A DNA stretch of 64,000 nt, taken from Rhizobiaceae bacterium. Lineage in GTDB: Bacteria; Pseudomonadota; Alphaproteobacteria; Rhizobiales; Rhizobiaceae. The stretch lies in the NCBI GenBank assembly GCA_029233925.1, contig JARGOX010000013.1:48056-112055 (forward strand). The letters run 5' to 3'. Shown one piece after another: positions 1 to 48,359 of the stretch. Under the pieces are notes generated by a model. It saw nothing but the letters and a program-made list of their open reading frames with translations, ran no database searches and was not told where the DNA came from. Within the stretch, counting starts at the first letter, position 1. Every line of letters begins with the position of its first letter. A program made the position numbers and the translations under genes.

Positions 1-1548
1 CGTTTCGACGTCGACGCGGATGCCGTGGGCACCGTGGTCTATGCAATCAAGACCCCGCAGCAGGAATTTTCCCTGATCGCCTTTTCCTTCGCACCGGAAC
101 GTGAAGGCCGCACGGGCCGCATCATCGGCCGGGCCTGGGACATGATGGGCACGCTGAATGAGGGACCGGCAACACAGGCAGACATCGACAGCGCGCGTCG
201 CAATCTGCCGTTGCTTTATCGCGGACGGGCGACGGCCAATGCGCTGGTCTGGTGCCGTTGCAACCGTTCCATGCGGGCGTTCGACGCTACGTTGAACGCC
301 TTGGCAGATGGCCGCCAGCCGCTCGTTTCCGACATCAACAAGGTCGGTTACCTGATGCGCAATACGGGCCTCGATGGCAACGGCACCTTCGGCACGCGGT
401 CCTTTCCCTCGCTTGGCCATGACCATGCGCTTGGCGGCGTCCTCGAAGCCCAGATGCTGCTGGCCTACCTGATGCGGGAGTTTTCCTGTGATCTCGTTGA
501 TCACCTGGCCAGGCTGAAGTCCGATAAGGCTGTCGCCCTGGCACCGGAAATCCGGCGCTATATCGGCGTTGGCAACGGCTCAGCCCTCGGCCTTATCTTC
601 TTCATCCAGAAGCACCCGCGCCTGATCAATGCCTGGATCGAGTCGCGTGAAAAGGCCATTGCATCGGCCTGTGGCTTGAGGCTGGAGGCTGGCGATCGGC
701 GTATTGCAGAGCTGATCACGCTTGTACAGCGGGCCATTGTCTTCAGAAGGCAAGACCAGATGTCCTATGAGACCTTCGCGTCATCGCGCATCATCGCTGA
801 TGAACTCGAAAAACTGACCCCCTATCTTGAGGAACTGCGCGTCAAGGGAACGATCGACGGCGAAGTCTGCGATTATCCGCTCGACGTTCTGGCCCGCAAG
901 GCGGAACAGGACTTTGAGCCGGAAGGCTATGAGACGTTCCTCTCGCTGATTGTCGAGCTTGTCGCTGAAGAGGCGGACGAGATGACAATGCAGGTGGAAG
1001 GCGTGGATGAGTTAAACGTCGATGCGCGCATGAAGATTGCGGAGCTGAAAGCCCTGATCACCAAAGACTATGCATGGGCGTTGTCGATTGACGCGGCCGC
1101 ACCCGATGCCAATGCCTATGTCTGGTACAAATCCGAAACTGCCGAAGAGCCGCGCCGGGGCGAGCGCACGGAGATTCCGCATGCCCGTGACCTTGGCCTC
1201 GACATGCCGGGCGACATCCAGCAGCTTCTGCACGATATCGAACTGGAAGAACCGGGGCTTTCCACCGCCCGCTTCCTGCTGAAATATCCACAGCACCGCC
1301 TGATGTGCGCGCGCGTTCAGAGCCTTGCCGGCACGCACTTTCACACGCCGCAGGCCAATATCAATGCGGTCGATTTTGTTCCGATCCAACTGGTGCGGCT
1401 GATGAATTCCGCCATTCACGGTATCGACAAGACGCGCGACTACCTGCAGCGCAACCTGCGGGGTGTTCTGTTTCATGGCGCTCCAACCACCAGCGATATT
1501 CGTGCCGGTCGCGGCGCCAGCTGGTTCTATCCTCAGGAGCCCAATTGA
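1..1548 (+). CDS. Large conserved hypothetical protein, 5'-truncated by the window edge
   Basis: Frame +1 is open from base 1 (RFDVDADAVGTVVY...) to TGA at 1546-1548. Motifs CNRS, GYLMRNTGLDGNGTFG, GVGNGSALG, WYKSETAEEPR. From recall it resembles an unannotated family found next to M19 dipeptidase genes in marine alphaproteobacteria. Confidence 0.85.
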   Translation, partial: RFDVDADAVGTVVYAIKTPQQEFSLIAFSFAPEREGRTGRIIGRAWDMMGTLNEGPATQADIDSARRNLPLLYRGRATANALVWCRCNRSMRAFDATLNALADGRQPLVSDINKVGYLMRNTGLDGNGTFGTRSFPSLGHDHALGGVLEAQMLLAYLMREFSCDLVDHLARLKSDKAVALAPEIRRYIGVGNGSALGLIFFIQKHPRLINAWIESREKAIASACGLRLEAGDRRIAELITLVQRAIVFRRQDQMSYETFASSRIIADELEKLTPYLEELRVKGTIDGEVCDYPLDVLARKAEQDFEPEGYETFLSLIVELVAEEADEMTMQVEGVDELNVDARMKIAELKALITKDYAWALSIDAAAPDANAYVWYKSETAEEPRRGERTEIPHARDLGLDMPGDIQQLLHDIELEEPGLSTARFLLKYPQHRLMCARVQSLAGTHFHTPQANINAVDFVPIQLVRLMNSAIHGIDKTRDYLQRNLRGVLFHGAPTTSDIRAGRGASWFYPQEPN

Positions 1549-2243
1549 TGACTGCTTGCCGTGAAAGCCTGCGGATCATGCCGCGCGAAATGCGCATGAT
1601 GTCCGAGCGCATCCTGTCACTGACCAATCTGCCAAAAGGTTTTGCCCTGATGGTCGGCGATGTCGTCATGTATTCCGAAGCCATGGGTCTGGGCGGTTTT
1701 GCACTGCTGGAACAACGGCTTGAAGCCCTGCTGCCCGCCGATCCGACGGCGCTTTCATTGGCAGGCGGCGCGGCACAGGAACTGGTGCTCGATGCTGGCG
1801 GACAGCATGCATGGTTTGTTGTCGCCAGTGTTCTGGACCTGCTCGACGAGGCACTGGAAAGCGGGAAAACTGCAGCGATCAAAGTCACAAATTGCATGGA
1901 TCCGGCCGAGCTTGCCATTGCTGCCGCTCTCGGCCGACGGGTCGGGCTTGAGATTGTCATGGATGGTTCCATCCTGTCCGCCAGCGCTACCGGGAAGCCC
2001 GCTGACCCGGTCCTTGACGCGGTGCTGACCGAGGGCTGCGCGATAGCAGCAGACCTGTGGTGGCGGATTTACGATCTTGCCAAGACCGCGCTTACACCGG
2101 AATCGGCTGTCTCACGACGGCATGCGGGGCCGATCATTGTTACCGAAGATGGGCAGATTATCGGTCGTGTCGACAATGATGACGACACCGACCTCCAATT
2201 CATCAGCAAGATATCCAACGGATCACAAGAGGCGCGATCATGA
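1548..2243 (+). CDS. Hypothetical protein, DUF3726-like (tentative)
   Basis: ATG at 1548 overlaps the upstream TGA (TGATG), with CAGGAG upstream. 231 aa. The N-terminal helical pattern PREMRMMSERIL...G...EAMGLGG recalls DUF3726. The CDS is secure; the family call is weaker. Confidence 0.7.
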   Translation: MTACRESLRIMPREMRMMSERILSLTNLPKGFALMVGDVVMYSEAMGLGGFALLEQRLEALLPADPTALSLAGGAAQELVLDAGGQHAWFVVASVLDLLDEALESGKTAAIKVTNCMDPAELAIAAALGRRVGLEIVMDGSILSASATGKPADPVLDAVLTEGCAIAADLWWRIYDLAKTALTPESAVSRRHAGPIIVTEDGQIIGRVDNDDDTDLQFISKISNGSQEARS

Positions 2244-3217
2244 TCATAGACGGTCTGCAATGCGGACATTTCGACCGAAAATCATTTGAATCACTCAAAC
2301 TGGCAGGTGTTGCCGGCGTGGTGGTGACCTGCGGTTTTTGGGAAGGGGCGCTTGAATCCCTCGACAGTCTTGGCGCCTGGCGCGATCTCATCGGTGAAAA
2401 CGCCGATATTGCAGCCATCGCCAAAACGCCCGCTGATATTGTCAGCGCCAATGAAGCGGGAAAGGTTGCTGCCATTCTCGGCTTTCAGAACGCCAATCTC
2501 CTGGAAGGACGCATCCGCCTGGTCGAGATGTTCGCCGAGTTGGGGGTGCGCGTCATCCAACTGACCTACAACAATCAGAACGAGCTTGCCGGCAGTTGCT
2601 ATGAGGCGGAAGATTCAGGTCTTGCCCGCTTCGGCAAGGAAGTGGTTCGTGAAATGAATGAAGCCGGTATTCTGGTCGATTGCAGCCATGTCGGAAATCG
2701 CTCGACGCTTGATGCAATCGAGGCTTCGGGCAAGCCCATCGCGGTGACACATGCCAATGCCGACAGCCTGTTCGCCCACAAGCGCAACAAGACCGATGAT
2801 GTGCTCAAGGCGCTTGGCCAGACCGGCGGCGTGATTGGCTGCGCCACCTATCGCAACATCACCGGTGACGCCTATTGTGCCACGCTGGAAGCCTGGTGCA
2901 CCATGGTGGCGCGCACGGTGGAGATTGCCGGTATTGACAGTGTGGCGATCGGTACGGATCGCAGCCACAATTTCACCGCACCTGACTATGCCTGGATGCG
3001 GCAGGGCCGCTGGACGCGCGGCGTCGATTATGGCGCTGCATCGGCAGCCCGCCCCGGCAAGGCGCCGCCTCCCGAATGGTTCCCGAATGTCGAAGACATC
3101 AATGTCATTCCACAAGGCCTCCGAAGCGTGGGCTTCTCGGAAGAAGAGGTCGCGAAGATAACCCACAAAAACTGGCTGCGTCTCTATGAGGCAACTTTCC
3201 GCAAATCCGAAACATAA
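2240..3217 (+). CDS. Membrane (renal) dipeptidase family M19 amidohydrolase-fold protein
   Basis: ATGA overlap with the previous gene. Motifs GFQNA, QLTYN, DCSH, THAN, RNKTD, IGTD, NWLR are typical of the M19 family. Confidence 0.88.
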   Translation: MIIDGLQCGHFDRKSFESLKLAGVAGVVVTCGFWEGALESLDSLGAWRDLIGENADIAAIAKTPADIVSANEAGKVAAILGFQNANLLEGRIRLVEMFAELGVRVIQLTYNNQNELAGSCYEAEDSGLARFGKEVVREMNEAGILVDCSHVGNRSTLDAIEASGKPIAVTHANADSLFAHKRNKTDDVLKALGQTGGVIGCATYRNITGDAYCATLEAWCTMVARTVEIAGIDSVAIGTDRSHNFTAPDYAWMRQGRWTRGVDYGAASAARPGKAPPPEWFPNVEDINVIPQGLRSVGFSEEEVAKITHKNWLRLYEATFRKSET

Positions 3218-3229
3218 GAGGGAATTAAA

Positions 3230-4279
3230 ATGACAGACCCAAAATTCAACTCCGGTCTCATCCTACCCAATCGCCGGCGATTTCTTCAAGGTTCGGCAGC
3301 ATTGGCTGCCGGCGCACTGGCAATGCCCTATGTGGCCCGTGCCGACGACAAGGTGCTCTATATCAATTCATGGGGCGGCCCATGGCTGGAGGCCGCCAAG
3401 GCCAATCTTTTCGATCCCTTCACGGCTGAAACGGGAATTGAGATTCGCACGGTTTCACCGGTGTCATTTGCCAAGCTGGCAGCCCAGGTCAAGACCGGTG
3501 TCTACGAGTTTGACGTGACGACTTTGGGTGGCGGCGATATTGTTCGCGCCAACGAGGCAGGCATCATCGAGGATCTCGAGGCACCTTATGAAGGTGGGCT
3601 CTTCCAGAATGGTGTTGCAAGCCACGCCTTTGCAACCGTGATGGCCTGGCGCACCGATACGATCAAGGAAACGCCGAAAAGCTGGGCTGATTTCTGGGAT
3701 GTCGAGCGCTTCCCCGGTGGCCGTTCGCTGCAGCGCTATGCAGCACGTGTCCTGCCGATTGCGCTTCTGGCGGATGGCGTTGCCATGGAAGATCTTTATC
3801 CGCTGGATATCGAGCGGGCCTTTGCCAAGCTTGATGAGATCAAGGACCATATCCGCGTCTGGTGGACGGCCGGTGCACAATCGACCCAGATCCTGCGCGA
3901 CGGCGAGATTGACATGATCGGCATCTGGCATGGCCGCTACTTTGAAGCCGAAGACGCCGGTGCGCCAGTTGCCATGACCTGGAACCAGGCTGAGATCGAC
4001 CGGGCCTATTGGGTTGTTGCAAAGGATACGCCGAACATGGAAGCGGCGAAGCTGTTCGTTGAATTCGCAACCTCGGCCAAACCGCTTGCCGGTTTTGCAT
4101 CGCAGGCCAAATACGGGGCACTTAACCCGGCGGCCAACGAATTCATCCCGGAGAGTGCCCAGCCACGCATGCCAACGTCACCTGCCAATTATCCGCTCGC
4201 CTTTGAGCAGGATATGAGCAACTGGGGTGGCGATCCGCATGAAGTCTCGGCCCGTTTCGATGAATGGCTTGCCAGCTGA
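3230..4279 (+). CDS. ABC transporter substrate-binding protein, PotD/PotF-like, Tat signal
   Basis: RRRFLQGSAALAAG...ARA twin-arginine leader; SWGG, SWADFWD, LLADGV motifs; RBS GAGGGA. Confidence 0.9.
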   Translation: MTDPKFNSGLILPNRRRFLQGSAALAAGALAMPYVARADDKVLYINSWGGPWLEAAKANLFDPFTAETGIEIRTVSPVSFAKLAAQVKTGVYEFDVTTLGGGDIVRANEAGIIEDLEAPYEGGLFQNGVASHAFATVMAWRTDTIKETPKSWADFWDVERFPGGRSLQRYAARVLPIALLADGVAMEDLYPLDIERAFAKLDEIKDHIRVWWTAGAQSTQILRDGEIDMIGIWHGRYFEAEDAGAPVAMTWNQAEIDRAYWVVAKDTPNMEAAKLFVEFATSAKPLAGFASQAKYGALNPAANEFIPESAQPRMPTSPANYPLAFEQDMSNWGGDPHEVSARFDEWLAS

Positions 4280-4313
4280 TCGAAGCTTGAGACATTAAAC
4301 CCGGAAGCAGCCA

Positions 4314-5162
4314 ATGAACCGCATGATCTCCCGTTTGTCTGAACAACAGAACCTGTGGCCCTGGCTGCTTCTGCTTCCCCTGTCTGCCTATCTGCTCGTC
4401 TTCTTTGCCGTTCCGTTGGCAGATGTGGTGCAGATGAGTGTTACCGAGCCAACCCTCGGTCTGCAAAACTACGAAAAAGTGCTGACCGGGAGCCTCTACC
4501 GCAAGGTGTTCCTCAACACCTTCATGACGGCCGGCATCGTCACCCTGTGTTGCCTGTTTGTCGGCTATCCGCTTGCCTATCTGATGGCCCATACCAGCCG
4601 GCGCAATGCCATGCTGATCCTGCTGCTGATCACCATGAGTTTCTGGACAAGCTTTCTAGTGCGCACCTATGCCTGGATGGTGCTTCTCGGCAACAACGGG
4701 CCGGTGATCTGGTTGATCCAGGCCATGGGCTTTGAGGAAAAACCGCACCTGCTTTTCACCCGGTTTTCCTCGACTTTGGCCATGGTGCATATCCTTGCGC
4801 CTTACATGATCATGAACATCTATTCGGTGATGCAGAAGATCGACAAATCGCTGATCCTGTCGGCCGAAAGCATGGGCGCGCGCGGTGCTTCGCTGTTTCG
4901 GCATATCTATCTTCCGCTGACTGCGCCGGGTATCGCCAACGGTTCGGTGCTGGTCTTTGTGATCTGCCTTGGTTTTTACGTCACGCCGGTGCTGCTGGGC
5001 AGCCCGCGTGAGCAAATGGCCGCCGGCCTGATCGGGCACCAGATCGAGGAATTCCTTGCCTTCGGGCTCGGTTCGGCCATGGCAATCGTTCTCCTGGGGG
5101 TCACTCTGGTGATTCTCGGCATCTACCATCGCCGTTTTGGCCTGGACAAATTGTGGGGCTGA
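4314..5162 (+). CDS. ABC transporter permease, PotB-like
   Basis: Hydrophobic segments, FWTSFLVRTYAW, EAA-like loop SAESMGA. Confidence 0.9.
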   Translation: MNRMISRLSEQQNLWPWLLLLPLSAYLLVFFAVPLADVVQMSVTEPTLGLQNYEKVLTGSLYRKVFLNTFMTAGIVTLCCLFVGYPLAYLMAHTSRRNAMLILLLITMSFWTSFLVRTYAWMVLLGNNGPVIWLIQAMGFEEKPHLLFTRFSSTLAMVHILAPYMIMNIYSVMQKIDKSLILSAESMGARGASLFRHIYLPLTAPGIANGSVLVFVICLGFYVTPVLLGSPREQMAAGLIGHQIEEFLAFGLGSAMAIVLLGVTLVILGIYHRRFGLDKLWG

Positions 5163-5163
5163 C

Positions 5164-5973
5164 ATGAACACCTTGATGCGCGTCATTGCCTACGCAGTGA
5201 TCATTTTCATCGCCGCGCCGCTGGTCATCGTTGTACCGATGTCGCTGTCGACGGCGTCTTCGCTGCAATTTCCGCCGCCTGGCTACTGGCTGGGGTACTA
5301 TGCGTCCTATTTCTCCGATCCCGGCTGGTTGCGGCCAACCTGGAACAGCATTGTGATTGCCAGTGCAACGACGGTGCTGACCATGATCCTGGTGGTTCCG
5401 GCTGCTTTTGCACTGGTGCGCCACAAGTTCTGGGGCAAGGGCGTCGCCAATCTGATGTTGATGATGCCCATGGCCGTGCCGCATATCGTGATGGCGGTCG
5501 GCTATTACTCGGTCTTCGGTCAGATGCGGCTGGTTCACACGCATCTGGGCGTCATTCTGGCGCATACCTGTCTGTCGGTGCCGATCACCTTTCTGGTTCT
5601 GTCCGCCAATCTGAAAGGTTTTGACCGGACATTGGAACGTGCCGCCCGCAGCCTGGGCGCTTCGCCGCTGCAGACCTTTGGCCATGTGACGCTGCCGATC
5701 CTGCGCCCGGGCCTTCTCATTTCGGCACTCTTTGCCTTTATCCAGTCATTCGACGAAACCGTGGTTGCGATCTTCATATCGGGTCGTGATGCAGAAACCC
5801 TGCCGCGCAAGATGTTTGACAGCATCCGGCAGGAAGCAGATCCGGTTATCGCCGTCATTTCCAGCCTGCTTTTCCTGATCGTGGCGATCGCGCTGATTGC
5901 ACCGCATGTCGTTTCGGCGCTGCGCGGACGGTTTACCACCAAGGGACAGGAAAAGGCGCTCATCGCGCAATAG
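5164..5973 (+). CDS. ABC transporter permease, PotC-like
   Basis: ATG 1 nt after the previous stop; LERAARSLGASP loop; SFDETVVA motif. Confidence 0.9.
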   Translation: MNTLMRVIAYAVIIFIAAPLVIVVPMSLSTASSLQFPPPGYWLGYYASYFSDPGWLRPTWNSIVIASATTVLTMILVVPAAFALVRHKFWGKGVANLMLMMPMAVPHIVMAVGYYSVFGQMRLVHTHLGVILAHTCLSVPITFLVLSANLKGFDRTLERAARSLGASPLQTFGHVTLPILRPGLLISALFAFIQSFDETVVAIFISGRDAETLPRKMFDSIRQEADPVIAVISSLLFLIVAIALIAPHVVSALRGRFTTKGQEKALIAQ

Positions 5974-5987
5974 CAATCGGAGACTTC

Positions 5988-7058
5988 ATGAGCAGCTATC
6001 TGAGCCTCAAGGGCATCAACAAGAGCTATGGTGATTTCGTCGCACTGGACGATGTCAATCTGGAAATCAAAAAGGGCGAATTCGTCACCTTTCTGGGCCC
6101 GAGCGGTTCGGGCAAGACAACGACGCTGATGATCATCGCCGGATTCGAAAAGGCCACACGCGGTGAAGTCGAAATCGAGGGCCTGTCGCTTGCCGGTCTC
6201 GATCCGCAGGACCGCAATATCGGCATTGTATTTCAGAATTATGCGCTGTTTCCGCACAAGTCGGCGGTGGAAAATGTCTATTTCCCGCTGCAAATGCGCA
6301 AGGTCAAGCGCAAGGAGGGCATGCGCCGCGCAGAAGAAATGCTTGAGCTCGTCGGGCTGAAGGGTTTCTCGCACCGTCACCCGAAGGAATTGTCAGGTGG
6401 CCAGCAGCAACGTGTGGCGCTGGCGCGCGCGCTGGTGTTCGGACCGGACCTGTTGCTTCTCGATGAACCATTGGGGGCGCTGGACAAGAATCTGCGTGAG
6501 CAGATGCAGATCGAGATCAAGCGCATACAGAAGAAACTGGGCGTCACGACGATTTTCGTGACCCATGATCAGACGGAAGCGATGTCGATGTCGGACCGGA
6601 TCGTGATCTTTTCCCAGGGCAGCATTCAACAGGCCGATGCGCCGCTTGAAATCTATCACCGCCCGAAGACCCAATTCGTCGCCGACTTTATCGGAGAAAG
6701 CAATCTGCTTGCCGGAAAAGTCGTCGATGCTGCCAGCGGGATCCTGAGCAGTCCGGTTCTGGGCGACTGCACCTATTCCGGCGATCATCAGCCAGCCGTG
6801 GAAAACGGCCAGGATGTCACGATTGTCCTGCGGCCGGAGAATTTGACAATTTCACGCGATCCGATCGAGGGGAGGATGAATGGCAGGATGAAGATCGAAA
6901 CAATCGTCAATTATGGTGATAATGCCCTTGTCATCGGCCTGAGCGGTGGCGTGCCGATCCGTGTGCGCGTTCTGGGTGCGGATGTGGTTATCCTCAGTGA
7001 GGGTGATGAATGCTGTTTTTCCTGGGATGAAGACGCGATCTTCCTGGTTGCGGAATAG
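5988..7058 (+). CDS. ABC transporter ATP-binding protein, PotA-like, with C-terminal TOBE
   Basis: Walker A GPSGSGKT, signature LSGGQQQR, Walker B LLLLDEP, H-loop VTHD. Confidence 0.93.
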   Translation: MSSYLSLKGINKSYGDFVALDDVNLEIKKGEFVTFLGPSGSGKTTTLMIIAGFEKATRGEVEIEGLSLAGLDPQDRNIGIVFQNYALFPHKSAVENVYFPLQMRKVKRKEGMRRAEEMLELVGLKGFSHRHPKELSGGQQQRVALARALVFGPDLLLLDEPLGALDKNLREQMQIEIKRIQKKLGVTTIFVTHDQTEAMSMSDRIVIFSQGSIQQADAPLEIYHRPKTQFVADFIGESNLLAGKVVDAASGILSSPVLGDCTYSGDHQPAVENGQDVTIVLRPENLTISRDPIEGRMNGRMKIETIVNYGDNALVIGLSGGVPIRVRVLGADVVILSEGDECCFSWDEDAIFLVAE

Positions 7059-7068
7059 GGGCGTCGAT

Positions 7069-7470
7069 ATGGATGATATTGTAGATATTGCGGGCACTAT
7101 TGCCCATTTTGGTATTGGTGCACGGGCCTCGATCGCCACTGTGCACCAGGGAACAGGATATTTTGCTGTTACCCCCAAAACCCCTTATGACGGCGCACTT
7201 TCGACTGCGGAGCAGGCCGACCAGTTGTTTGAAAAAGCCGAGGCACGATTGTCGCAGATCGGCTCATCGAAACAGGGTCTGCTGTTTGTCGCCATCCTGC
7301 TGCGCGACATTGGTGATGTCGCGGCGTTCAACGAGCGCTGGGATGCCTGGGTCGCCGGCGTCACACCGCCTGCCCGTGCCTGTTTCGAGGCAAGGCTGGC
7401 CAATCCGGATATGAAAGTCGAGATGATCATGGTGTGCGCGGCTGCGCCTGCCAGTGATGTACAGGCATGA
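7069..7470 (+). CDS. RidA/YoaB-like enamine/imine deaminase family protein
   Basis: 133 aa from ATG 7069; FNERWDAW and PPARACFEARLANPDMKVEM motifs, including the family's catalytic Arg position. Confidence 0.85.
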   Translation: MDDIVDIAGTIAHFGIGARASIATVHQGTGYFAVTPKTPYDGALSTAEQADQLFEKAEARLSQIGSSKQGLLFVAILLRDIGDVAAFNERWDAWVAGVTPPARACFEARLANPDMKVEMIMVCAAAPASDVQA

Positions 7471-7749: not shown

Positions 7750-8208
7750 CTAGTTTTCGAGACCGGCTGTAAAATTGTTCTTGACCCTTGCCACCCGGCT
7801 CAGGAGTGTCAGAAACAAACGCTGCTCTTCCTGCGACAGGTCACACAAAAGCTCCTCCTGGATCGCATCCAGACTGGGCTGTATTTCCTTCATCAAAGCC
7901 TGTCCCTCATCGGTCAGACTGATCAGATGGCCACGGGGTGATCTGTCGCTTCGGTCGCGACGCAACAGGCCCTTGCGTTCCAGCCGCCTGATAATGTCGC
8001 TGACCGTCATCGGGTCCAGCACAGCGGCGGCCGCCACGCCCTTTTGTTCCAGGTTTTCATTTTGAAGGACAACAATCAAAACCGACATTTGCGGCGCTGT
8101 CAGCGTGGTGTGCCCAAGTCGCTCATTGAAAAGGGCGGCGAAACGCTGTTGTGCCCGGCGAATCAAATGGGCCGGCTGATTATACAGAGGCAGTACGGCA
8201 GGCGTCAT
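7750..8208 (-). CDS. MarR family transcriptional regulator
   Basis: PAHLIRRAQQ, LTAPQMSVL, RLERKGLLRR, LTDEG winged-helix motifs. Confidence 0.9.
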   Translation of the reverse strand: MTPAVLPLYNQPAHLIRRAQQRFAALFNERLGHTTLTAPQMSVLIVVLQNENLEQKGVAAAAVLDPMTVSDIIRRLERKGLLRRDRSDRSPRGHLISLTDEGQALMKEIQPSLDAIQEELLCDLSQEEQRLFLTLLSRVARVKNNFTAGLEN

Positions 8209-8514
8209 TCAAAGTCCCGATTCATGTGCGCCATGATTGATGCGCTAGCGCTCTAAAAGCGACTATAGACTGCATTGCCGTGATGGCAAAGGCCAACAAA
8301 AGTTGAATTTTCCGTACGATATAACGATTTTTCCATGAATTTTTGCTGCAGCCTTGAAATTATCGCACTCTTTTGCTGCCTTTGTGCTTTGATGCAAGGC
8401 GGCCATGTCTTCGTGGTCAGACCTTCGCTGTCAGACGCCGCAGGACGAAGCATCCTTGCAAGGGGGTGCAGTTGAGCCGAAAGGTTCAGCGAAAAGCTTT
8501 CGATGGGAGAGACA

Positions 8515-11500
8515 ATGCCACATCATTTCAAAACAATTGCCGCTGTGTTGATTTCGGGACTGATGCTGGGATGGCTTGTCATGGGAATGGCCCAGGCGGC
8601 CGAGACGCGCCAGATCACCACTTTCAACAATGCCGATTTTTTTGGCTTTGATCTGCGGGCTGAAAAGAATGTCTCGCTGGATCGCTGCAAATCCTCCTGT
8701 CTGAGCGACCGCCAATGCCGCGCCTTTACCTATAATTCCAGCGCGCAATGGTGTTTTCTGAAATCCGATTTCAATCAACTCAACAGGTTCGAAGGGGCGA
8801 TTGCCGGCAAGGTGATCACGGTTTCGGCCAGTGACGCCGATATCGGCGCTGCCCCGCAACTGGCGTTTCTTTCGGAAAATCTATACGCTGAAGCCTCCCG
8901 TGAAGGCGCAGAGATTGCCAAAATGCAATCGGCCGATTATGGCCTTGCGGCCACGACAATTGCGGCTGAGGATGCCCTGGCGGCCGGAAATATGGCCTAT
9001 GCGCTGAATGCATTTCGCGTTGCCATTGCCATTGATTCGACCAGTGCTGACCTGTGGCTGGGCCTTGCGGAAGCCACATGGCGTGAACTGGCGCAAAATA
9101 ATTATCAAGGCTACGAAATGCAGCGAAAGGCCACATCGGCGGCGCTGAATGCCTATCAAAAATCACGTACGGTTGATGTGCGGGCCGATGCACTGGCAAA
9201 ACTGGCCAGAGCGCTGGCCATCCAGCAACAGTACCGGCCGGCGCTGGAAACCTACAAGGAAAGCCTTGCTCTGGTGGATTCACCGCGGGTACGCGCGGCC
9301 TTTCAGGACCTGTCTGCGCGCAAGGGGTTTCGCGTTGTTGAGCATACGATCGATGCCGACAGCGCATCGGCACGTGTCTGCGTGGTTTTCTCCGACCCGC
9401 TGGTCAAATCGGGCGTCAATTATGCGTCCTTTGTGACCATTGACGGCCGCGCCGCGAGCAGCGTTGTTGCCAAGGACAAGCAGATCTGCGCGGAAGGCCT
9501 GGAGCATGGCAGCGAATATCGGGTGTCATTGAGGGCGGGCCTGCCGGCGGACATCGGAGAAGTGCTCATGGCGCCGGTTACCATTACGGCCTACGTCCGT
9601 GACCGGTCTCCGACCGTGCGTTTTACCGGTGATAATTTTGTCCTTGCCAAGGCCGGTCGCAAGGGCATTCCGGTTGTCAGCGTCAATGCCGACAAGGTTG
9701 AAATCGAACTTTACCGAATCGGTGAACGGTCGCTTGCACCGCTGCTGGCCAAATCGCAGTTCCTGCGGCAGCTCGACGGCTATGATGCCGGCAATATTCG
9801 TGAAGATCTGGGTGAACTGGTGTGGCAGGGAGATCTGCTGACACAGAACGAGCTCAATGGCGAAACGGTCACGAGTTTTCCAATCGACGAAGCGCTTCCG
9901 CAGCGCGAGCCGGGTGTCTATGTGCTGATGGCGCGGGTGGCTGGTGAGACGCTGGATAACTGGAGCAGTCGGGCGACGCAATGGCTTGTGGTTTCCGATA
10001 TCGGCCTTTCTACCCTTGCCGGCAGCGACGGTTTGCATGTGTTTGCCCGTTCGCTCGATAGCGCCCTGCCGACAGCCGGTCTCAAGCTGACATTGCTGGC
10101 ACGCAACAATGAGATTCTGGGTGAGGCCATTACGGATGAAAACGGGCGGGCAAGCTTTGTTGCCGGTCTGATCCGTGGCAAGCAGGCTCTGGCACCAGCG
10201 GTCATGACTGCTGACAATGGCCGGGGCGATTTCGTCTTTCTCGATATGACCCGCGCCGGGTTTGATCTTTCCGATCGTGGCGTTTCAGGACGGCCGGCAC
10301 CCGGTCCGCTGGATATTTTCACCTGGACCGACAGGGGTATCTACAGGGTGGGTGAAACGGTGCATCTGTCCGCGATGATCCGCGATGACGAAGCCGAGGC
10401 AGTTTCCAACCTGCCTTTGACCTTTGTTGTGCTGCGCCCCGACGGCAAGGAAGACCGTCGCGTGGTGCGCACCGGCGGTGAGATTGGTGGTTACGGGTTT
10501 GACCTCGAGATACCATCCAATGCCATGCAGGGCGCCTGGAATGTCAGGACCTATGCTGATCCCAAGTCAAATTTTCTGAATGAAACGGCCTTTCTGGTCG
10601 AGGATTTCAGGCCGGACCGGATAGCCTTTGAGCTTGATCTGCCAAAGACCCCGCTGGAGGCCGATGGCATCGCCTCCGCAAGGGTTGATGGACGTTTTCT
10701 CTACGGCGCCCCGGCAGCCGGGCTTGCGGTTGAAGCCGAGTTGAAACTCAAGGCCGTGCGCGCGCGTTCCGAATTTCCCAAATATGTGTTTGGCCTGTCG
10801 GACGAGGACAGCATTGCTGCGCGGGTCAATCTGGCGAATGTGCCGCCCCTTGACGCCGAGGGTCTGAGCGATATTGCCATTGAACTGGGCACGCTGCCTT
10901 CCACCACCCACCCGCTTGAGGCGGAATTGACCGTCCGATTGAGTGAAGGCGGCGGGCGCGCTGTGGAGCGCACCGGCACCATGGCGGTGCGGCCTTCCGG
11001 CATGATGATCGGCATCCGGCCGGAGTTTGAAGACGGGCTCGTCGGTGAGAACACGACGGCGGCCTTTAAGGTGATTGCCGCCGGTCCTGATGGCACGACA
11101 CAGGATGCCAATGGGTTGAAATGGTCCTTGCTGCGCATTGAGCGCAATTATCAATGGTATCGGGAAGGCAATTCCTGGCGGTATGAGGCGGTCGAATTCA
11201 CCAGGCAGATCGCCGATGGCACCATCAATATCAATGCCGATGCGCCTGCCGATATCGCTTCTGCCGTGGGCTGGGGACGGTATCGCCTGCTGGTTGAATC
11301 GTCCGAGATCAACGGACCGGCAACCAGCGTTGAATTCAGTGCCGGCTGGTACGTCAGCGCGGCATCCACCGAGACGCCTGACGGCCTGGAAATTGCCCTC
11401 GATAAAGCGCTCTATCTGGTTGGCGAGACTGCGCAATTGCAGATATCTCCACGTTTTGCAGGCCAGGCGCTGATCACCATCGCCAATGACGGGCTGCGGC

Positions 11501-13989
11501 GGGTTCTGACGGCTGACGTTCCCGAAGAGGGTGCCGTCATTGGAATCCCGGTCGCCGACGATTGGGGTGCTGGCGCCTATGTCATGGTGACATTGATCCG
11601 GCCGGGGAGCGATGCAACAAGCCGCATGCCTTCACGCGCTGTCGGGATCCAGTGGTTGAGCGTCAGCCCGCAGGACCGGGCCCTTGAGGTCACCATGAAT
11701 GTGCCGGAGAAGATCGCTCCCAACAGCACGCTGACGATACCTGTTTCCGTGCGTGGGGCCGGCGCCCATGAAGAGGCACGCTTCACACTGGCGGCCGTCG
11801 ATGTGGGCATTTTGAACCTGACGGCTTTTGCGCCGCCCGATCCGCAGAACTGGTATTTCGGGCAACGCCGCATGGGCTTTGAGATTCGTGACCTCTACGG
11901 GCGTCTGATCGACGGTTCGCAAGGGGTGACAGGACGGATCCGCTCCGGCGGTGACGGGCCGGCGCTGGGAATCAAGGGCAGCCCGCCGAAGGAAAGGTTG
12001 GTGGCGCTCCATTCGGGCATCGTGACCCTGGACGATAACGGACAGGCACTGGTCAGCTTTGACATACCGCAGTTCAACGGCACGCTGAAACTGATGGCCG
12101 TGGCCTGGACGCAGAGCGGCGTCGGACAGGCCGACAGGGATCTGATTGTGCGTGATCCCGTGGTGATCACCGCGAGCCTGCCGAAATTCCTGGCACCCGA
12201 CGATGTCTCGCAATTGCGCTTTGACTTTGCCAATACGGATGGTCCTTCCGGTGAATACGCCCTTTCGCTGGATGTTGATCCGTCGCTGGATATCGACCGG
12301 TCCGGCTTTGGTCAAACGGTGTCGCTGGCGCGTGGACAGTCACAATCATTGATCATTGGCGTCAAGGCGGGACAGCCCGGGACTGCCGAGATCGCCATGC
12401 GGCTTACGGCGCCGGACGGAACAATCATCGAGAATGTCCAGCAGTTGGTAGTACGTCCGGCAACCCTGCCGGTGACGACGCGGCTGGAATTGCCGTTGGC
12501 GGCCAATGGCGGGTCCGCCATGATTGACCGCGAGCTGCTGGCCACCAGCTTTTTGGGCGGGGCCAGTGTCAGCATTGGCATATCGCACTCCAATATCGAT
12601 GTTCCGGGACTGCTGATGTCCCTTGATCGCTATCCCTATGGTTGCGCCGAGCAGACAACAAGCAGGGCTCTGCCATTGCTCTATCTCAGTGAGCTGGATG
12701 CGCCGGCCGCATTGCTGGAAGATCCTGGTCTGCGCAATCGGGTGCAATCAGCTGTCGAGCGTGTGCTTGCCTATCAGTCATCCGAGGGCAGTTTCGGTCT
12801 TTGGGGGCCGGGCGGCGGCGATCTCTGGCTCAACGCCTATGTCGGCGATTTTCTGACGCGGGCTCGCGAGAAGAATTACGCGGTTCCCGAACAGGCGATG
12901 CGCCTGGCGCTGGACAATCTGCAAAATGTCCTGTCCTACAACAATGATCTGGCTGACAATGGCGGGGGCATTGCCTATGCGCTCTATGTTCTGGCGCGCA
13001 ACAAACGCGCCTCGGCCGGTGATCTGCGCTATTATGCGGATGCGCAGCTGGATGCCTTCCGGTCACCGCTGGCCCGGGCACAGATTGCCGCTGCGCTGGC
13101 GCTTTATGGTGATGCGGAGCGGGCCCAGCGGGTCTTTGCTTCCGCCTATCGTCTGGCCGGATCATCACAATCCATCGCCCATGAAAACTACGGTTCACTT
13201 CTGCGCGATGATGCTGCCATGCTGGCACTTGCGGGTGAAAGCCGTCCGGTATCCCCGCTTTTGGGCGACATGGTCAAACTGGTCTCTGACCGGCAAATGA
13301 CAGCGCCTGCCAGAACCACCCAGGAACAGGCCTGGATGCTTCTGGCGGCCCGGGCGTTGCAGGACACGGACCGGAAGCTGTCGCTGCGGGTCGATGGCGA
13401 TATCATTGAAGGGGCCTATAGCAGCACTGTCGACGGGAGCGAACTTGCGGCGCGTCCGGTCCGCATCGAGAATGTTGGCGACCAACCGGTCACCGCCATG
13501 GTGACCAGCGTGGCGGCGCCGCTTGAACCGCTGCGCGCAGGCGGCAATGGATTTGAAATTGATCGCAAATACTACACAATGGATGGTGACGAGGTGGCTA
13601 TTGAGGCGGTCAAACAGAATGAACGATTTGTGGTCGTTCTCACCATCAGGCAGACCAACGCGCTGGGATCGCAGATCCTGGTGACGGATCTCTTGCCGGC
13701 GGGACTCGAAATCGACAATTCCCGACTGGTGGAAAGTGCAACGCTTTCGAATTTCTCCTGGCTGGGTGAAACCAATCCGGCCCACGTGGAGTTTCGTGAC
13801 GACCGGTTCGTTGCAGCCTTCGAGACCAGCGCCAATGACGTCGATAAAGCCATCCAGGTGGCCTATGTTGTGCGTGCTGTTGTGCCGGGCATCTATACCC
13901 ATCCGGCTGCGCAGGTGGAGGATATGTACCGGCCCGAGTTCGTGGCCCGCACTGCCACGCGCTGGATTGAGGTCAAGGCAGCGGATTGA
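8515..13989 (+). CDS. Bacterial alpha-2-macroglobulin with N-terminal PAN/apple domain
   Basis: About 1824 aa; signal peptide ending AQA; Cys-rich PAN module (C..SC....CRAFTY....WCFLK); TDRGIYRVGETV MG2 motif; thioester YPYGCAEQ (CAEQ at 12643-12654); coupled to pbpC. Confidence 0.93.
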   Translation: MPHHFKTIAAVLISGLMLGWLVMGMAQAAETRQITTFNNADFFGFDLRAEKNVSLDRCKSSCLSDRQCRAFTYNSSAQWCFLKSDFNQLNRFEGAIAGKVITVSASDADIGAAPQLAFLSENLYAEASREGAEIAKMQSADYGLAATTIAAEDALAAGNMAYALNAFRVAIAIDSTSADLWLGLAEATWRELAQNNYQGYEMQRKATSAALNAYQKSRTVDVRADALAKLARALAIQQQYRPALETYKESLALVDSPRVRAAFQDLSARKGFRVVEHTIDADSASARVCVVFSDPLVKSGVNYASFVTIDGRAASSVVAKDKQICAEGLEHGSEYRVSLRAGLPADIGEVLMAPVTITAYVRDRSPTVRFTGDNFVLAKAGRKGIPVVSVNADKVEIELYRIGERSLAPLLAKSQFLRQLDGYDAGNIREDLGELVWQGDLLTQNELNGETVTSFPIDEALPQREPGVYVLMARVAGETLDNWSSRATQWLVVSDIGLSTLAGSDGLHVFARSLDSALPTAGLKLTLLARNNEILGEAITDENGRASFVAGLIRGKQALAPAVMTADNGRGDFVFLDMTRAGFDLSDRGVSGRPAPGPLDIFTWTDRGIYRVGETVHLSAMIRDDEAEAVSNLPLTFVVLRPDGKEDRRVVRTGGEIGGYGFDLEIPSNAMQGAWNVRTYADPKSNFLNETAFLVEDFRPDRIAFELDLPKTPLEADGIASARVDGRFLYGAPAAGLAVEAELKLKAVRARSEFPKYVFGLSDEDSIAARVNLANVPPLDAEGLSDIAIELGTLPSTTHPLEAELTVRLSEGGGRAVERTGTMAVRPSGMMIGIRPEFEDGLVGENTTAAFKVIAAGPDGTTQDANGLKWSLLRIERNYQWYREGNSWRYEAVEFTRQIADGTININADAPADIASAVGWGRYRLLVESSEINGPATSVEFSAGWYVSAASTETPDGLEIALDKALYLVGETAQLQISPRFAGQALITIANDGLRRVLTADVPEEGAVIGIPVADDWGAGAYVMVTLIRPGSDATSRMPSRAVGIQWLSVSPQDRALEVTMNVPEKIAPNSTLTIPVSVRGAGAHEEARFTLAAVDVGILNLTAFAPPDPQNWYFGQRRMGFEIRDLYGRLIDGSQGVTGRIRSGGDGPALGIKGSPPKERLVALHSGIVTLDDNGQALVSFDIPQFNGTLKLMAVAWTQSGVGQADRDLIVRDPVVITASLPKFLAPDDVSQLRFDFANTDGPSGEYALSLDVDPSLDIDRSGFGQTVSLARGQSQSLIIGVKAGQPGTAEIAMRLTAPDGTIIENVQQLVVRPATLPVTTRLELPLAANGGSAMIDRELLATSFLGGASVSIGISHSNIDVPGLLMSLDRYPYGCAEQTTSRALPLLYLSELDAPAALLEDPGLRNRVQSAVERVLAYQSSEGSFGLWGPGGGDLWLNAYVGDFLTRAREKNYAVPEQAMRLALDNLQNVLSYNNDLADNGGGIAYALYVLARNKRASAGDLRYYADAQLDAFRSPLARAQIAAALALYGDAERAQRVFASAYRLAGSSQSIAHENYGSLLRDDAAMLALAGESRPVSPLLGDMVKLVSDRQMTAPARTTQEQAWMLLAARALQDTDRKLSLRVDGDIIEGAYSSTVDGSELAARPVRIENVGDQPVTAMVTSVAAPLEPLRAGGNGFEIDRKYYTMDGDEVAIEAVKQNERFVVVLTIRQTNALGSQILVTDLLPAGLEIDNSRLVESATLSNFSWLGETNPAHVEFRDDRFVAAFETSANDVDKAIQVAYVVRAVVPGIYTHPAAQVEDMYRPEFVARTATRWIEVKAAD

Positions 13990-47082: not shown

Positions 47083-48359
47083 TTGGTGAATATTGGCTGG
47101 TAATTCTCATCATTCTTGGCCTGATTGTTCTGTCCGGATTTTTTTCCGGTTCGGAAACGGCGCTGACGGCAGCGTCACGCTCGCGCATGCACCAGCTGGA
47201 ATCGAACGGCCAGGTCAATGCCGGAATCGTATCGCGATTGATTGACAGACAGGATCGGCTGATCGGGGCACTGCTGATTGGCAACAACATGGTCAATATT
47301 CTGGCGTCATCGCTGGCGACAAGTGTCTTTCTTGGGCTTTTTGGCGAAAGCGGCGTTGCCTATGCGACCATCGTGATGACGATACTGCTGGTTATTTTTG
47401 CCGAAGTCCTGCCGAAAAGCTGGGCCATATCGTCACCGGAGCGGGTGTCGATGGCGGTCGCGCCTGCAGTGCGCCTTTTTGTCATTGTCATCGGCCCGCT
47501 TTCCTCCGGGGTAAACTGGATCGTGCGTCAGTTGCTGTCGGTTCTGGGGATTACCCTGTCGACCGATACATCCATGCTCTCTGCACATGAGGAGTTGCGA
47601 GGCGCGGTTGCGCTGCTGCATCGCGAGGGGTCGGTGATCAAGGCGGACCGCGACCGGCTTGGCGGTGTTCTGGATCTGGGCGAGCTGGAAGTGTCGGATG
47701 TCATGGTGCATCGCACGACCATGCGGATGATCAACGCCGATGAGGATTCCGATGTTGCGGTCAGGCAGATTCTGGAAAGCCCCTATACGCGTATGCCGGT
47801 ATGGCGCGACGAGACGGACAACATCATTGGCGTCATCCATGCCAAGGATGTTCTGCGGGCTCTGGCTGGCGCCGGCGGAGATCGGCAGACCATTGATATT
47901 GTCAAGATTGCACAAAAACCCTGGTTCGTGCCGGACACGACAAATCTGAAAGATCAGCTCAATGCGTTTCTGCGGCGCAAGACCCATTTTGCCATCGTTG
48001 TCGATGAATATGGTGAGGTGGAAGGCCTGGTGACGCTGGAGGATATTCTGGAGGAGATCGTCGGCGACATTGCCGACGAGCATGACCTGGATATTCAGGG
48101 CGTCGTGCAGGAGGCCGATGGTTCGGTGGTTGTCGACGGGACGGTGCCCATTCGCGATCTGAACCGGGCGCTCGACTGGACCCTGCCTGACGAGGAAGCC
48201 ACCACCGTTGCCGGGCTTGTGATCCACGAATCACAGACCATTCCCGAAGAGCGTCAGGCGTTCACCTATCACGGCAAGCGGTTCATCGTGATGAAGCGGG
48301 TTAAAAACCGAATCACGAAATTGCGAATCAGGCCGGTGGAAGCCGAGCAAAAGGGTTAG
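47079..48359 (+). CDS. HlyC/CorC (CNNM + CBS) family transporter
   Basis: [26 protein letters not shown] pair (VMVHR, VVDEYG...EDILEEIVG), CorC_HlyC tail. Confidence 0.92.

Follow-up and report, generated by a model that had tools for sequence, protein, structure and literature searches.

Homarine catabolism and a related operon in a Rhizobiaceae bacterium

The operon for the use of the algal metabolite homarine (N-methylpicolinate), homABCDER/homT, has been defined genetically, and mutants in its genes no longer grow on this compound (Ferrer-Gonzalez et al., Nat Microbiol 2026; PMC13236597). Here, this operon is compared with a nine-gene operon of a Rhizobiaceae bacterium (GenBank assembly GCA_029233925.1, contig JARGOX010000013.1). 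Eight of the nine genes lie at the start of the stretch of 64,000 nucleotides (nt) that was analyzed (positions 48,056 to 112,055 of the contig, forward strand; hereafter, the window). With a probability that we put at roughly 0.6, the operon is catabolic and has an enzyme core paralogous to the HomB/HomA/HomC trio. The compound that it degrades is most likely a nitrogen compound related to homarine. An earlier note on the window, made by a model from the sequence alone, had read these eight genes as an undescribed catabolic pathway for a nitrogen-containing solute.

In Cobetia sp. OBi1, the hom genes (ACFLL8_11490-11520) are arranged in the order homE, homA, homB, homT, homC, homD, and homR, with homT encoding a glycine-betaine-type transporter; in Ruegeria pomeroyi, they are SPO3188-SPO3192 (PMC13236597). 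HomC is a predicted peptidase, HomD (SPO3191) is an aldehyde dehydrogenase (ALDH) that is essential for homarine use, and homE is variable, adjoining either homA or homD (PMC13236597). The functions of HomA and HomB are unclear; a heterodimer is predicted, HomA is reported to carry binding motifs for flavin adenine dinucleotide (FAD), and the role of the pair in ring opening is a hypothesis only (PMC13236597). The pathway intermediates have the formulas C7H9NO5, C6H9NO4, and C6H9NO3, and the product is N-methylglutamate (PMC13236597). The operon is also present in SAR11, and a census based on BLAST matches to homA-D within 10 kb counted 11,755 'hom operon' genomes (PMC13236597). SPO3188 is annotated as a 'hypothetical protein'. 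Because the E-values of the homB hidden Markov model reach 1e-240 (PMC13236597), HomB should be a long protein.

Gene content and organization of the operon

The features at the 5' end of the window are as follows (window coordinates, strand, and description; ABC, ATP-binding cassette; GABA, gamma-aminobutyrate; TAT, twin-arginine translocation).

1..1548, plus strand: g1, HomB-family protein; large orphan subunit, presumed catalytic
1548..2243, plus strand: g2 (231 aa), in the HomA position; partner subunit with a predicted partial Ldh_2-like fold
2240..3217, plus strand: M19-like protein of the amidohydrolase fold, HomC-like (PF01244); alpha-metal ligands missing
3230..4279, plus strand: periplasmic solute-binding protein, PotD superfamily, GABA/mannopine-binder subgroup (SBP_bac_8, 2e-37; TAT_signal)
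4314..5162, plus strand: ABC permease, PotB/PotH-like (BPD_transp_1; PotB 154 bits, under the cut-off)
5164..5973, plus strand: ABC permease, PotC/PotI-like (BPD_transp_1; PotC 122 bits, under the cut-off)
5988..7058, plus strand: ABC ATPase, PotA/PhnT-like (ABC_tran, 7e-36; TOBE_2; PotA 349 bits, cut-off 482)
7069..7470, plus strand: predicted Rid-family imine/enamine deaminase, not archetypal RidA (PF01042, 53.8 bits); accessory member
7750..8208, minus strand: MarR-family regulator, convergent (MarR Pfam match); marks the 3' boundary of the operon

The eight plus-strand genes follow each other closely. The stop codon of g1 and the start codon of g2 overlap by 1 nt (TGATG at 1546-1550), g2 and the M19-like gene overlap by 4 nt (ATGA at 2240-2243), and the gaps from the M19-like gene onward are 12, 34, 1, 14, and 10 nt. 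The gene order and every junction given in the earlier note were confirmed in the list of open reading frames and by direct reading of the sequence. The same is true of its statement that the 5' part of the operon is outside the window. The 5' end of g1 is open in the window; its true start is 168 nt upstream (locus L002, position 11833), giving a full length of 571 aa. This start is overlapped by 8 nt by a same-strand gene for an IclR-family regulator (L002 11070-11840), with which the operon begins, 930 bp upstream of the window. Genes for a thiamine-diphosphate (TPP) enzyme and a cupin-XRE regulator are located divergently upstream of the operon. A scan for promoters and terminators gave no informative signal within or after the operon.

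Comparison with hom-type gene clusters

A protein search of plasmids identified, besides orthologues, a paralogue family of g1 with 31-33% identity (hereafter, g1') in Phaeobacter, Roseateles, and others; Ruegeria pomeroyi DSS-3 was not among the best 120 matches of the protein search with the Phaeobacter g1'. The Phaeobacter cluster has a LysR gene and genes for an aldehyde dehydrogenase, a membrane dipeptidase, a BCCT transporter, g1', a DUF3726 protein, and an Ldh family oxidoreductase, repeating the Cobetia hom order gene for gene. The set recurs in Roseateles together with a betaine ABC importer of the ProX type, and there adjoins sarcosine oxidase, folD, and purU. A cluster of this kind is also present in the genome that carries the window (contig C35, 146400-156500; L091 6372-16480). 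It consists of a LysR gene and genes for an Ldh_2 protein, a 2,5-dioxovalerate-dehydrogenase-like ALDH, an M19 protein (M19'), a g1' of 559 aa, a DUF3726 protein, and a ProXWV-type importer. Finally, SAR11-like genomes (1.3-1.4 Mb, 30-36% GC) carry M19', g1', and DUF3726 genes, and one of the two examined also has genes for an ALDH, a ProX-type binding protein, and an Ldh_2 protein. From the order and kinds of the genes, the lengths of the proteins, and the taxonomic distribution, we infer that the g1', DUF3726, and M19' genes of these clusters correspond to homB, homA, and homC, respectively. For this organism, the actual homarine operon is probably the cluster on contig C35.

The window operon resembles homABCDER/homT in that a gene for a large orphan protein stands beside genes for a protein of about 230 aa and an M19-like 'peptidase' with a degenerate metal site, all tightly coupled and provided with their own importer and regulator. 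At the sequence level, g1 is 31-34% identical over the full length to the g1' proteins of hom-type clusters (33% over 552 residues for the g1' on contig C35), and values of 27-31% were obtained for the SAR11-like and Phaeobacter g1'. The M19-like protein is 38-40% identical to the M19 proteins of these clusters and has the same pattern of IDxLQ, GxQN, SH, THAN, and G(T/S)D motifs. Between the g1 and g1' clades, 40-odd residues are invariant, mostly Arg, Asp, Glu, Trp, and Tyr, and no nucleotide-binding or metal-cluster motif was found among them.

These similarities are accompanied by differences in most other components. The hom operon has the LysR-type HomR, whereas the window operon has an IclR-family regulator; a BCCT or ProX betaine transporter in the former is replaced by a PotD/GABA-type ABC importer in the latter. 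Moreover, the window operon lacks counterparts of both the aldehyde dehydrogenase HomD and the Ldh_2 oxidoreductase HomE, and adds a Rid-family deaminase. In a maximum-likelihood tree of 151 family members, window-type proteins (including that of Sinorhizobium meliloti) and HomB-type proteins are separated by a branch with 99% support. The window clade is separate with 98-99% support, and the tree contains other deep clades, one of them a large group of fused proteins. When 400 alphaproteobacterial species were sampled evenly, a family member was found in 52 genomes in addition to that of the window; only one of these is of the window type (49% identity), and the others are 28-35% identical. 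Because a window-type operon and a hom-type cluster coexist in one genome, the two most likely serve different substrates. The description of the pathway as undescribed therefore needs to be divided: the trio is probably paralogous to the homABC core (PMC13236597), whereas the window clade, its substrate, and its chemistry remain undescribed.

Conservation and variable neighbors of the operon

Related loci were collected with one genome per species, which returned 207 loci, of which 80 were kept, and the window proteins were compared with them by tblastn. The genes for IclR, g1, and g2 are each found in all 80 loci, followed by those for the M19-like protein (79), the binding protein (77), the two permeases (76 and 74), and the ATPase (74). 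The gene order and spacing are almost constant. This arrangement is far beyond chance, and the unity of the operon, as proposed from the window alone, is borne out by the co-conservation of its core genes in 74-80 of the 80 loci. The Rid gene is present in 42 of 80 loci, the gene for the TPP enzyme in 45, and that for the cupin-XRE regulator in 33. The MarR gene lies outside the conserved unit (0/80). The loci are spread over Alpha-, Beta-, and Gammaproteobacteria, with hosts in Rhodobacterales, Hyphomicrobiales, Acetobacterales, Azospirillum, Halomonadaceae, Marinobacter, Bordetella, and Lautropia.

In S. meliloti, the operon is located on pSymB and comprises, in this order, genes for IclR, two hypothetical proteins, M19, the binding protein, two permeases, the ATPase, a class-III aminotransferase, a succinate-semialdehyde dehydrogenase (SSADH), and two RidA proteins. 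The M19-like and binding proteins of S. meliloti 1021 are UniProt Q92WG9 and Q92WH0, respectively. SMb20383 appears as a generic polyamine transporter in one literature mention, and its tie to this operon was not established. Across orthologous loci, the variable neighbors include a class-III aminotransferase recognized by the GabT model TIGR00700, an SSADH-type aldehyde dehydrogenase, a TPP enzyme that resembles benzoylformate decarboxylases (2-oxoacid decarboxylase-like), and a GlcD-like FAD oxidase. The absence of a flavin dehydrogenase and an aminotransferase, from which an unusual chemistry had been suggested, is thus true of this window, whereas orthologous loci add a GabT-like aminotransferase, an ALDH, and a GlcD-like FAD oxidase.

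The TPP enzyme that adjoins the window operon is a PRK07586-type 'acetolactate synthase large subunit' (L002 9078-10640, minus strand) and is the one found in 45/80 loci, often accompanied by a GabT-like aminotransferase and the cupin-XRE regulator. It is closest to benzoylformate decarboxylases, has no clear central domain, and is a candidate downstream 2-oxo-acid decarboxylase. A further variant of the window type occurs in an alphaproteobacterium with 66% GC (L094; G357:C16, 6028-11719). In this genome, an ALDH gene is located directly 3' of the M19-like gene and the binding-protein gene is 5 kb away, an arrangement that is intermediate between the window type and the hom type.

The orphan proteins g1 and g2

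Scans of Pfam and NCBIfam found no family match for g1 or g2, and profile searches against PDB sequences gave nothing under an E-value of 0.5. The two proteins to which no function could be assigned from the window alone thus remain without an assignment in these searches, except for a partial Ldh_2-like fold of g2. At least 720 homologues of g1 and more than 260 of g2 were found, all annotated as 'hypothetical' and often sharing contigs. An exhaustive search produced 804 representatives of the g1 family at 50% clustering, many of which are 800-940 aa long.

The AlphaFold2 (AF2) model of g1 has a pTM of 0.86, and Foldseek against the PDB found no fold relative for it (best E-value 0.097, TM about 0.1). 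The weak rows for a kinase, PEP-carboxylase, and JetABC in this output were rejected as noise. For g2 (model pTM 0.74), Foldseek placed about 139 residues on Ldh_2 enzymes, among them AllD and the Pip2C reductase (E-value 5e-5; TM 0.42-0.46, query-normalised). These correspond to about 139 of the roughly 340 residues of Ldh_2, or about half of the fold. Compared with full-length Ldh_2 proteins, g2 has no PF02615 match and does not show the complete fold with the NAD(P)-binding domain.

The C-terminus of one long family member (P0251) matches the g2 profile with 96% probability in hhalign, the only significant result when g2 was compared with fused homologues and DUF3726 proteins. Judged from this match, natural g1-g2 fusions exist, and because of these fusions g1 and g2 are expected to act as a complex. 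A large and well-supported clade of proteins of 800-940 aa (P0246-P0391) has a g1-type domain fused to a C-terminal region that resembles g2/DUF3726.

The M19-like protein

The M19-like protein matches Pfam PF01244 (Peptidase_M19) with an E-value of 1e-72 and 245 bits, with an alignment that begins at profile position 35. It belongs to the same family of amidohydrolase TIM barrels as the canonical M19 dipeptidases, such as human DPEP1 (1itq) and Streptomyces Sco3058 (3id7), and retains the SH, THAN, and GTD motifs with the two beta-site His and the Asp. The canonical enzymes carry an HxD motif and a bridging Glu, whereas the N-terminus of the window protein reads IIDGLQC, with IDGLQ in the place of the expected HxD, and GFQNA is found at the position of GAEGG in Sco3058, such that the bridging Glu is replaced by Gln. 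Three of the five ligands of the binuclear site are therefore lost, and its designation as an atypical M19 hydrolase was well chosen. With neither the HxD nor the bridging Glu in place, the protein is unlikely to work as a binuclear zinc dipeptidase.

The closest solved structure is 2i5g, a 325-residue 'amidohydrolase' (3e-51) that starts with VIDGL and also lacks the HxD. It is probably PA5396 of Pseudomonas aeruginosa, which has the same length. PA5396, a 325-aa 'putative dipeptidase', opens the operon PA5396-PA5397-dgcA-dgcB for dimethylglycine catabolism (PMC13492115). This dgc operon resembles the window operon in having a putative dipeptidase, here in the catabolism of an N-methyl amino acid; it differs in that the partners are DgcA and DgcB and there is no g1/g2 pair.

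The importer and the Rid protein

A complete PotABCD-type importer had been recognized in the earlier note, and the binding protein, two permeases, and ATPase are indeed all present, with no match at the equivalog level to PotD or PotF. The importer has the four-component architecture and the protein families of the polyamine importers PotABCD/PotFGHI. However, all of its NCBIfam equivalog scores are far under the cut-offs, with the binding protein reaching 49 bits against the PotD equivalog NF007048 (cut-off 582), and a specificity for polyamines is unsupported. The closest PDB entries to the binding protein are 4i1d, 4eq7/4euo, the GABA sensor scaffold 6dgv, MotA, and the mannopine and agropine binders. 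Its best relatives are thus in the subgroup of the GABA-binding proteins Atu4243/Pf622 and the mannopine-binding proteins MotA/AttC, and the ProX-type betaine binders are not its nearest relatives.

The last gene of the operon had been assigned to RidA. The assignment is correct for the Rid superfamily (PF01042, 53.8 bits) and not for archetypal RidA, since the scores against the corresponding models are under the cut-offs (TIGR00004, 31.6 bits, cut-off 106.25; PRK11401, 16.2, cut-off 222). The closest PDB entries are the Rid2-type proteins NMB1025 (9e-18), PSPTO_0102, and PA5083 (DguB, from a D-glutamate locus). The identity to these homologues is modest, and the Arg motif of the active site is common to all. 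The segment 'PPARACFEARLA' of the window protein aligns with 'TPARACVEARLA' of NMB1025, with the PAR(A/S)C motif kept; the Arg of this motif is presumably the catalytic one. DguB has been proposed to act on 2-iminoglutarate, which would fit a C5 imine product here.

Proposed pathway and alternative explanations

The combination of an importer, enzymes, and a Rid protein had suggested a catabolic locus for a nitrogen-containing solute, and this view is supported by the present comparison, in which these components are co-conserved. We propose, from homology, that the solute taken up by the ABC transporter with its TAT-exported binding protein is a zwitterionic amino-carboxylate and not a quaternary betaine. 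A complex of g1, with its Arg-rich orphan fold, and g2, a degenerate Ldh_2-like protein, may then catalyze the committing step, in which a C-N bond or a ring would be cleaved. This step would parallel that of HomA-HomB, itself proposed and not demonstrated. The M19-like protein may serve as a mononuclear hydrolase of the opened intermediate (e.g., a deformylase or amidase) or as a structural third subunit. The resulting enamine/imine precursor of a 2-oxo acid would be hydrolyzed by the Rid protein to the 2-oxo acid and ammonia. Such a product, instead of the N-methylglutamate of the homarine pathway, would be expected because the nitrogen would not be methylated. As suggested by the variable neighbors, the carbon skeleton may enter the node of 2-oxoglutarate, succinate semialdehyde, and GABA; the GabT, SSADH, TPP enzyme, and GlcD-like 2-hydroxyacid oxidase around this node fit a C5 or C4 dicarboxylate product.

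In the homarine route itself, HomA-HomB may open the ring and one carbon may be lost, perhaps via HomC, before HomD oxidizes an aldehyde and an N-methyl enamine/imine is reduced to N-methylglutamate. This order is proposed because of the published intermediates and the 2,5-dioxovalerate-dehydrogenase-like nature of HomD. The breakdown of a pyridine-carboxylate zwitterion via ring opening has a further parallel in trigonelline use by Acinetobacter baylyi. In this organism (work by Perchat et al. in 2018, cited in PMC13236597), the flavin reductase/oxygenase pair TgnAB reportedly initiates a route of ring opening, deformylation, and aldehyde oxidation that ends at succinate semialdehyde. Unlike TgnAB, g1 and g2 have no flavin or Rieske domain in the Pfam scan or in Foldseek.

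As for the substrate of the window operon, picolinate or another 2-carboxy N-heterocycle, i.e., a non-methylated relative of homarine, is the leading guess and is held with low confidence. A broader version of this idea is speculative and rather doubtful. It holds that g1 and g2, possibly with the metal-depleted M19-like protein as third subunit, form a new class of enzymes, with a fold that has no solved relative and no recognizable cofactor motif, for the cleavage of carboxylates that are N-heterocyclic or N-substituted. In that case, the HomB superfamily would be divided into four or more deep clades that differ in substrate, homarine being the only substrate known, and the window clade would convert a non-methylated zwitterion (e.g., picolinate or a similar N-heterocycle of plants or algae) to an imino-C5-dicarboxylate, from which Rid2 would produce 2-oxoglutarate.

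Several observations weigh against the paralogy of the trio with HomB/HomA/HomC and against the pathway derived from it. The link to hom stands on the order and types of genes, protein lengths, and distribution, and not on published Hom sequences. The equivalence of g2 and HomA rests on position, size, the hint of a common fold, and short common motifs. g2 has no Pfam DUF3726 match, BLASTP and hhalign comparisons with DUF3726 proteins were not significant (hhalign probability <1%), and only short N- and C-terminal motifs are shared. The FAD-binding motifs reported for HomA were not found by domain scans in g2 or in DUF3726 proteins. Although HomD is essential for homarine use, there is no ALDH between L002 8400 and window position 8200, and an ALDH is present at only some orthologous loci. 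Moreover, RidA is missing from 38/80 loci, which implies that the imine step is not obligatory. As for the literature, no paper on DUF3726 was found, and a search for the combination of M19, RidA, and IclR returned nothing relevant.

The homology between the two enzyme trios could also mean that the window carries a second homarine (or trigonelline) operon, which acts on the hom substrate and differs in importer and regulator. The BLAST-based survey of hom operons (PMC13236597) may already count ALDH-bearing loci such as that of S. meliloti, as this explanation would have it. Nevertheless, we consider it unlikely, given that another cluster, of the hom type and with an ALDH, an Ldh_2 gene, and a ProX-type betaine importer, is present in the same genome, and that g1 shares no more than 31-34% identity with HomB-type proteins and falls in a separate clade at 99% support. 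The binding protein belongs to the GABA/mannopine subgroup and not to the betaine binders, the regulator family differs, and RidA takes the place of the Ldh_2 reductase of the type that acts on N-methyl amino acids. The affiliation of the binding protein with GABA-binding proteins, together with the frequent presence of GabT, SSADH, and a PuuR-like cupin-XRE regulator nearby, would instead suit an operon for a GABA conjugate, polyamine, or amide, in which the M19-like amidohydrolase frees GABA or a similar omega-amino acid, with g1/g2 as accessory proteins. This is quite improbable for an M19-like protein that lacks three of the five binuclear-site ligands. Furthermore, an accessory role does not suit g1 and g2, which are the most strictly conserved components (80/80 loci) and represent the largest investment, and GabT and SSADH are in separate, variably placed units that are missing from the window locus.

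It is also conceivable that the operon is not catabolic at all, such that the trio makes or modifies a metabolite or forms a non-enzymatic complex, with the ABC system serving for export or sensing. No family member has a demonstrated enzyme activity and g1 lacks a recognizable cofactor or catalytic motif, which would agree with such a function. The probability of this explanation is very small, however, since an ABC system with a TAT-signal periplasmic binding protein is built as an importer, the IclR-type control, RidA, and catabolic neighbors fit degradation, and mutants of the paralogous hom genes lose growth on homarine. Among described pathways, the taurine (Tpa/Xsc) pathway was rejected because the TPP enzyme is like benzoylformate decarboxylase/PRK07586 and too short for Xsc. 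The degradation of aminopolycarboxylates (nitrilotriacetate or ethylenediaminetetraacetate), as suggested by the names of some hosts, has no supporting genes, and the gene sets of the ectoine, opine, and creatinine pathways do not match.

Other genes near the operon

Downstream of the MarR gene, the window contains a gene for a bacterial alpha-2-macroglobulin of 1828 aa (8503-13989, plus strand) that is unrelated to the operon; it has bMG3/5/6/10 domains, a bait region, a TED domain, and a PAN domain at the N-terminus. A second set of genes for amino-acid catabolism is located 7-9 kb 5' of the window (L002 2745-5240). This set encodes a D-serine-dehydratase-like pyridoxal-phosphate enzyme (Ala_racemase_N and D-ser_dehydrat), an SDR, and an archetype-like RidA (108 bits), and is preceded by genes for another SDR and a GFO/IDH/MocA oxidoreductase.

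Implications

A system of this kind has been known since 2026; what is new is a distinct clade with another importer, another regulator, and probably other downstream chemistry. A catabolic operon with a paralogous enzyme core would mean that the hom trio has been redeployed with these different components in soil rhizobia (including the genetically tractable S. meliloti, on pSymB), roseobacters, Halomonadaceae, and others. This points to at least one more abundant nitrogen metabolite that lacks a known bacterial sink. A further consequence is that some of the loci counted by BLAST as 'homarine degraders' may differ in specificity, such as the ALDH-carrying IclR/PotD-type locus on pSymB of S. 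meliloti. What HomA, HomB, and HomC catalyze is still a matter of guesswork, and a comparison of the two systems, one with a methylated and the other with a probably non-methylated substrate, and with an Ldh_2 reductase and a RidA protein, respectively, could help to solve the mechanism of the orphan fold.

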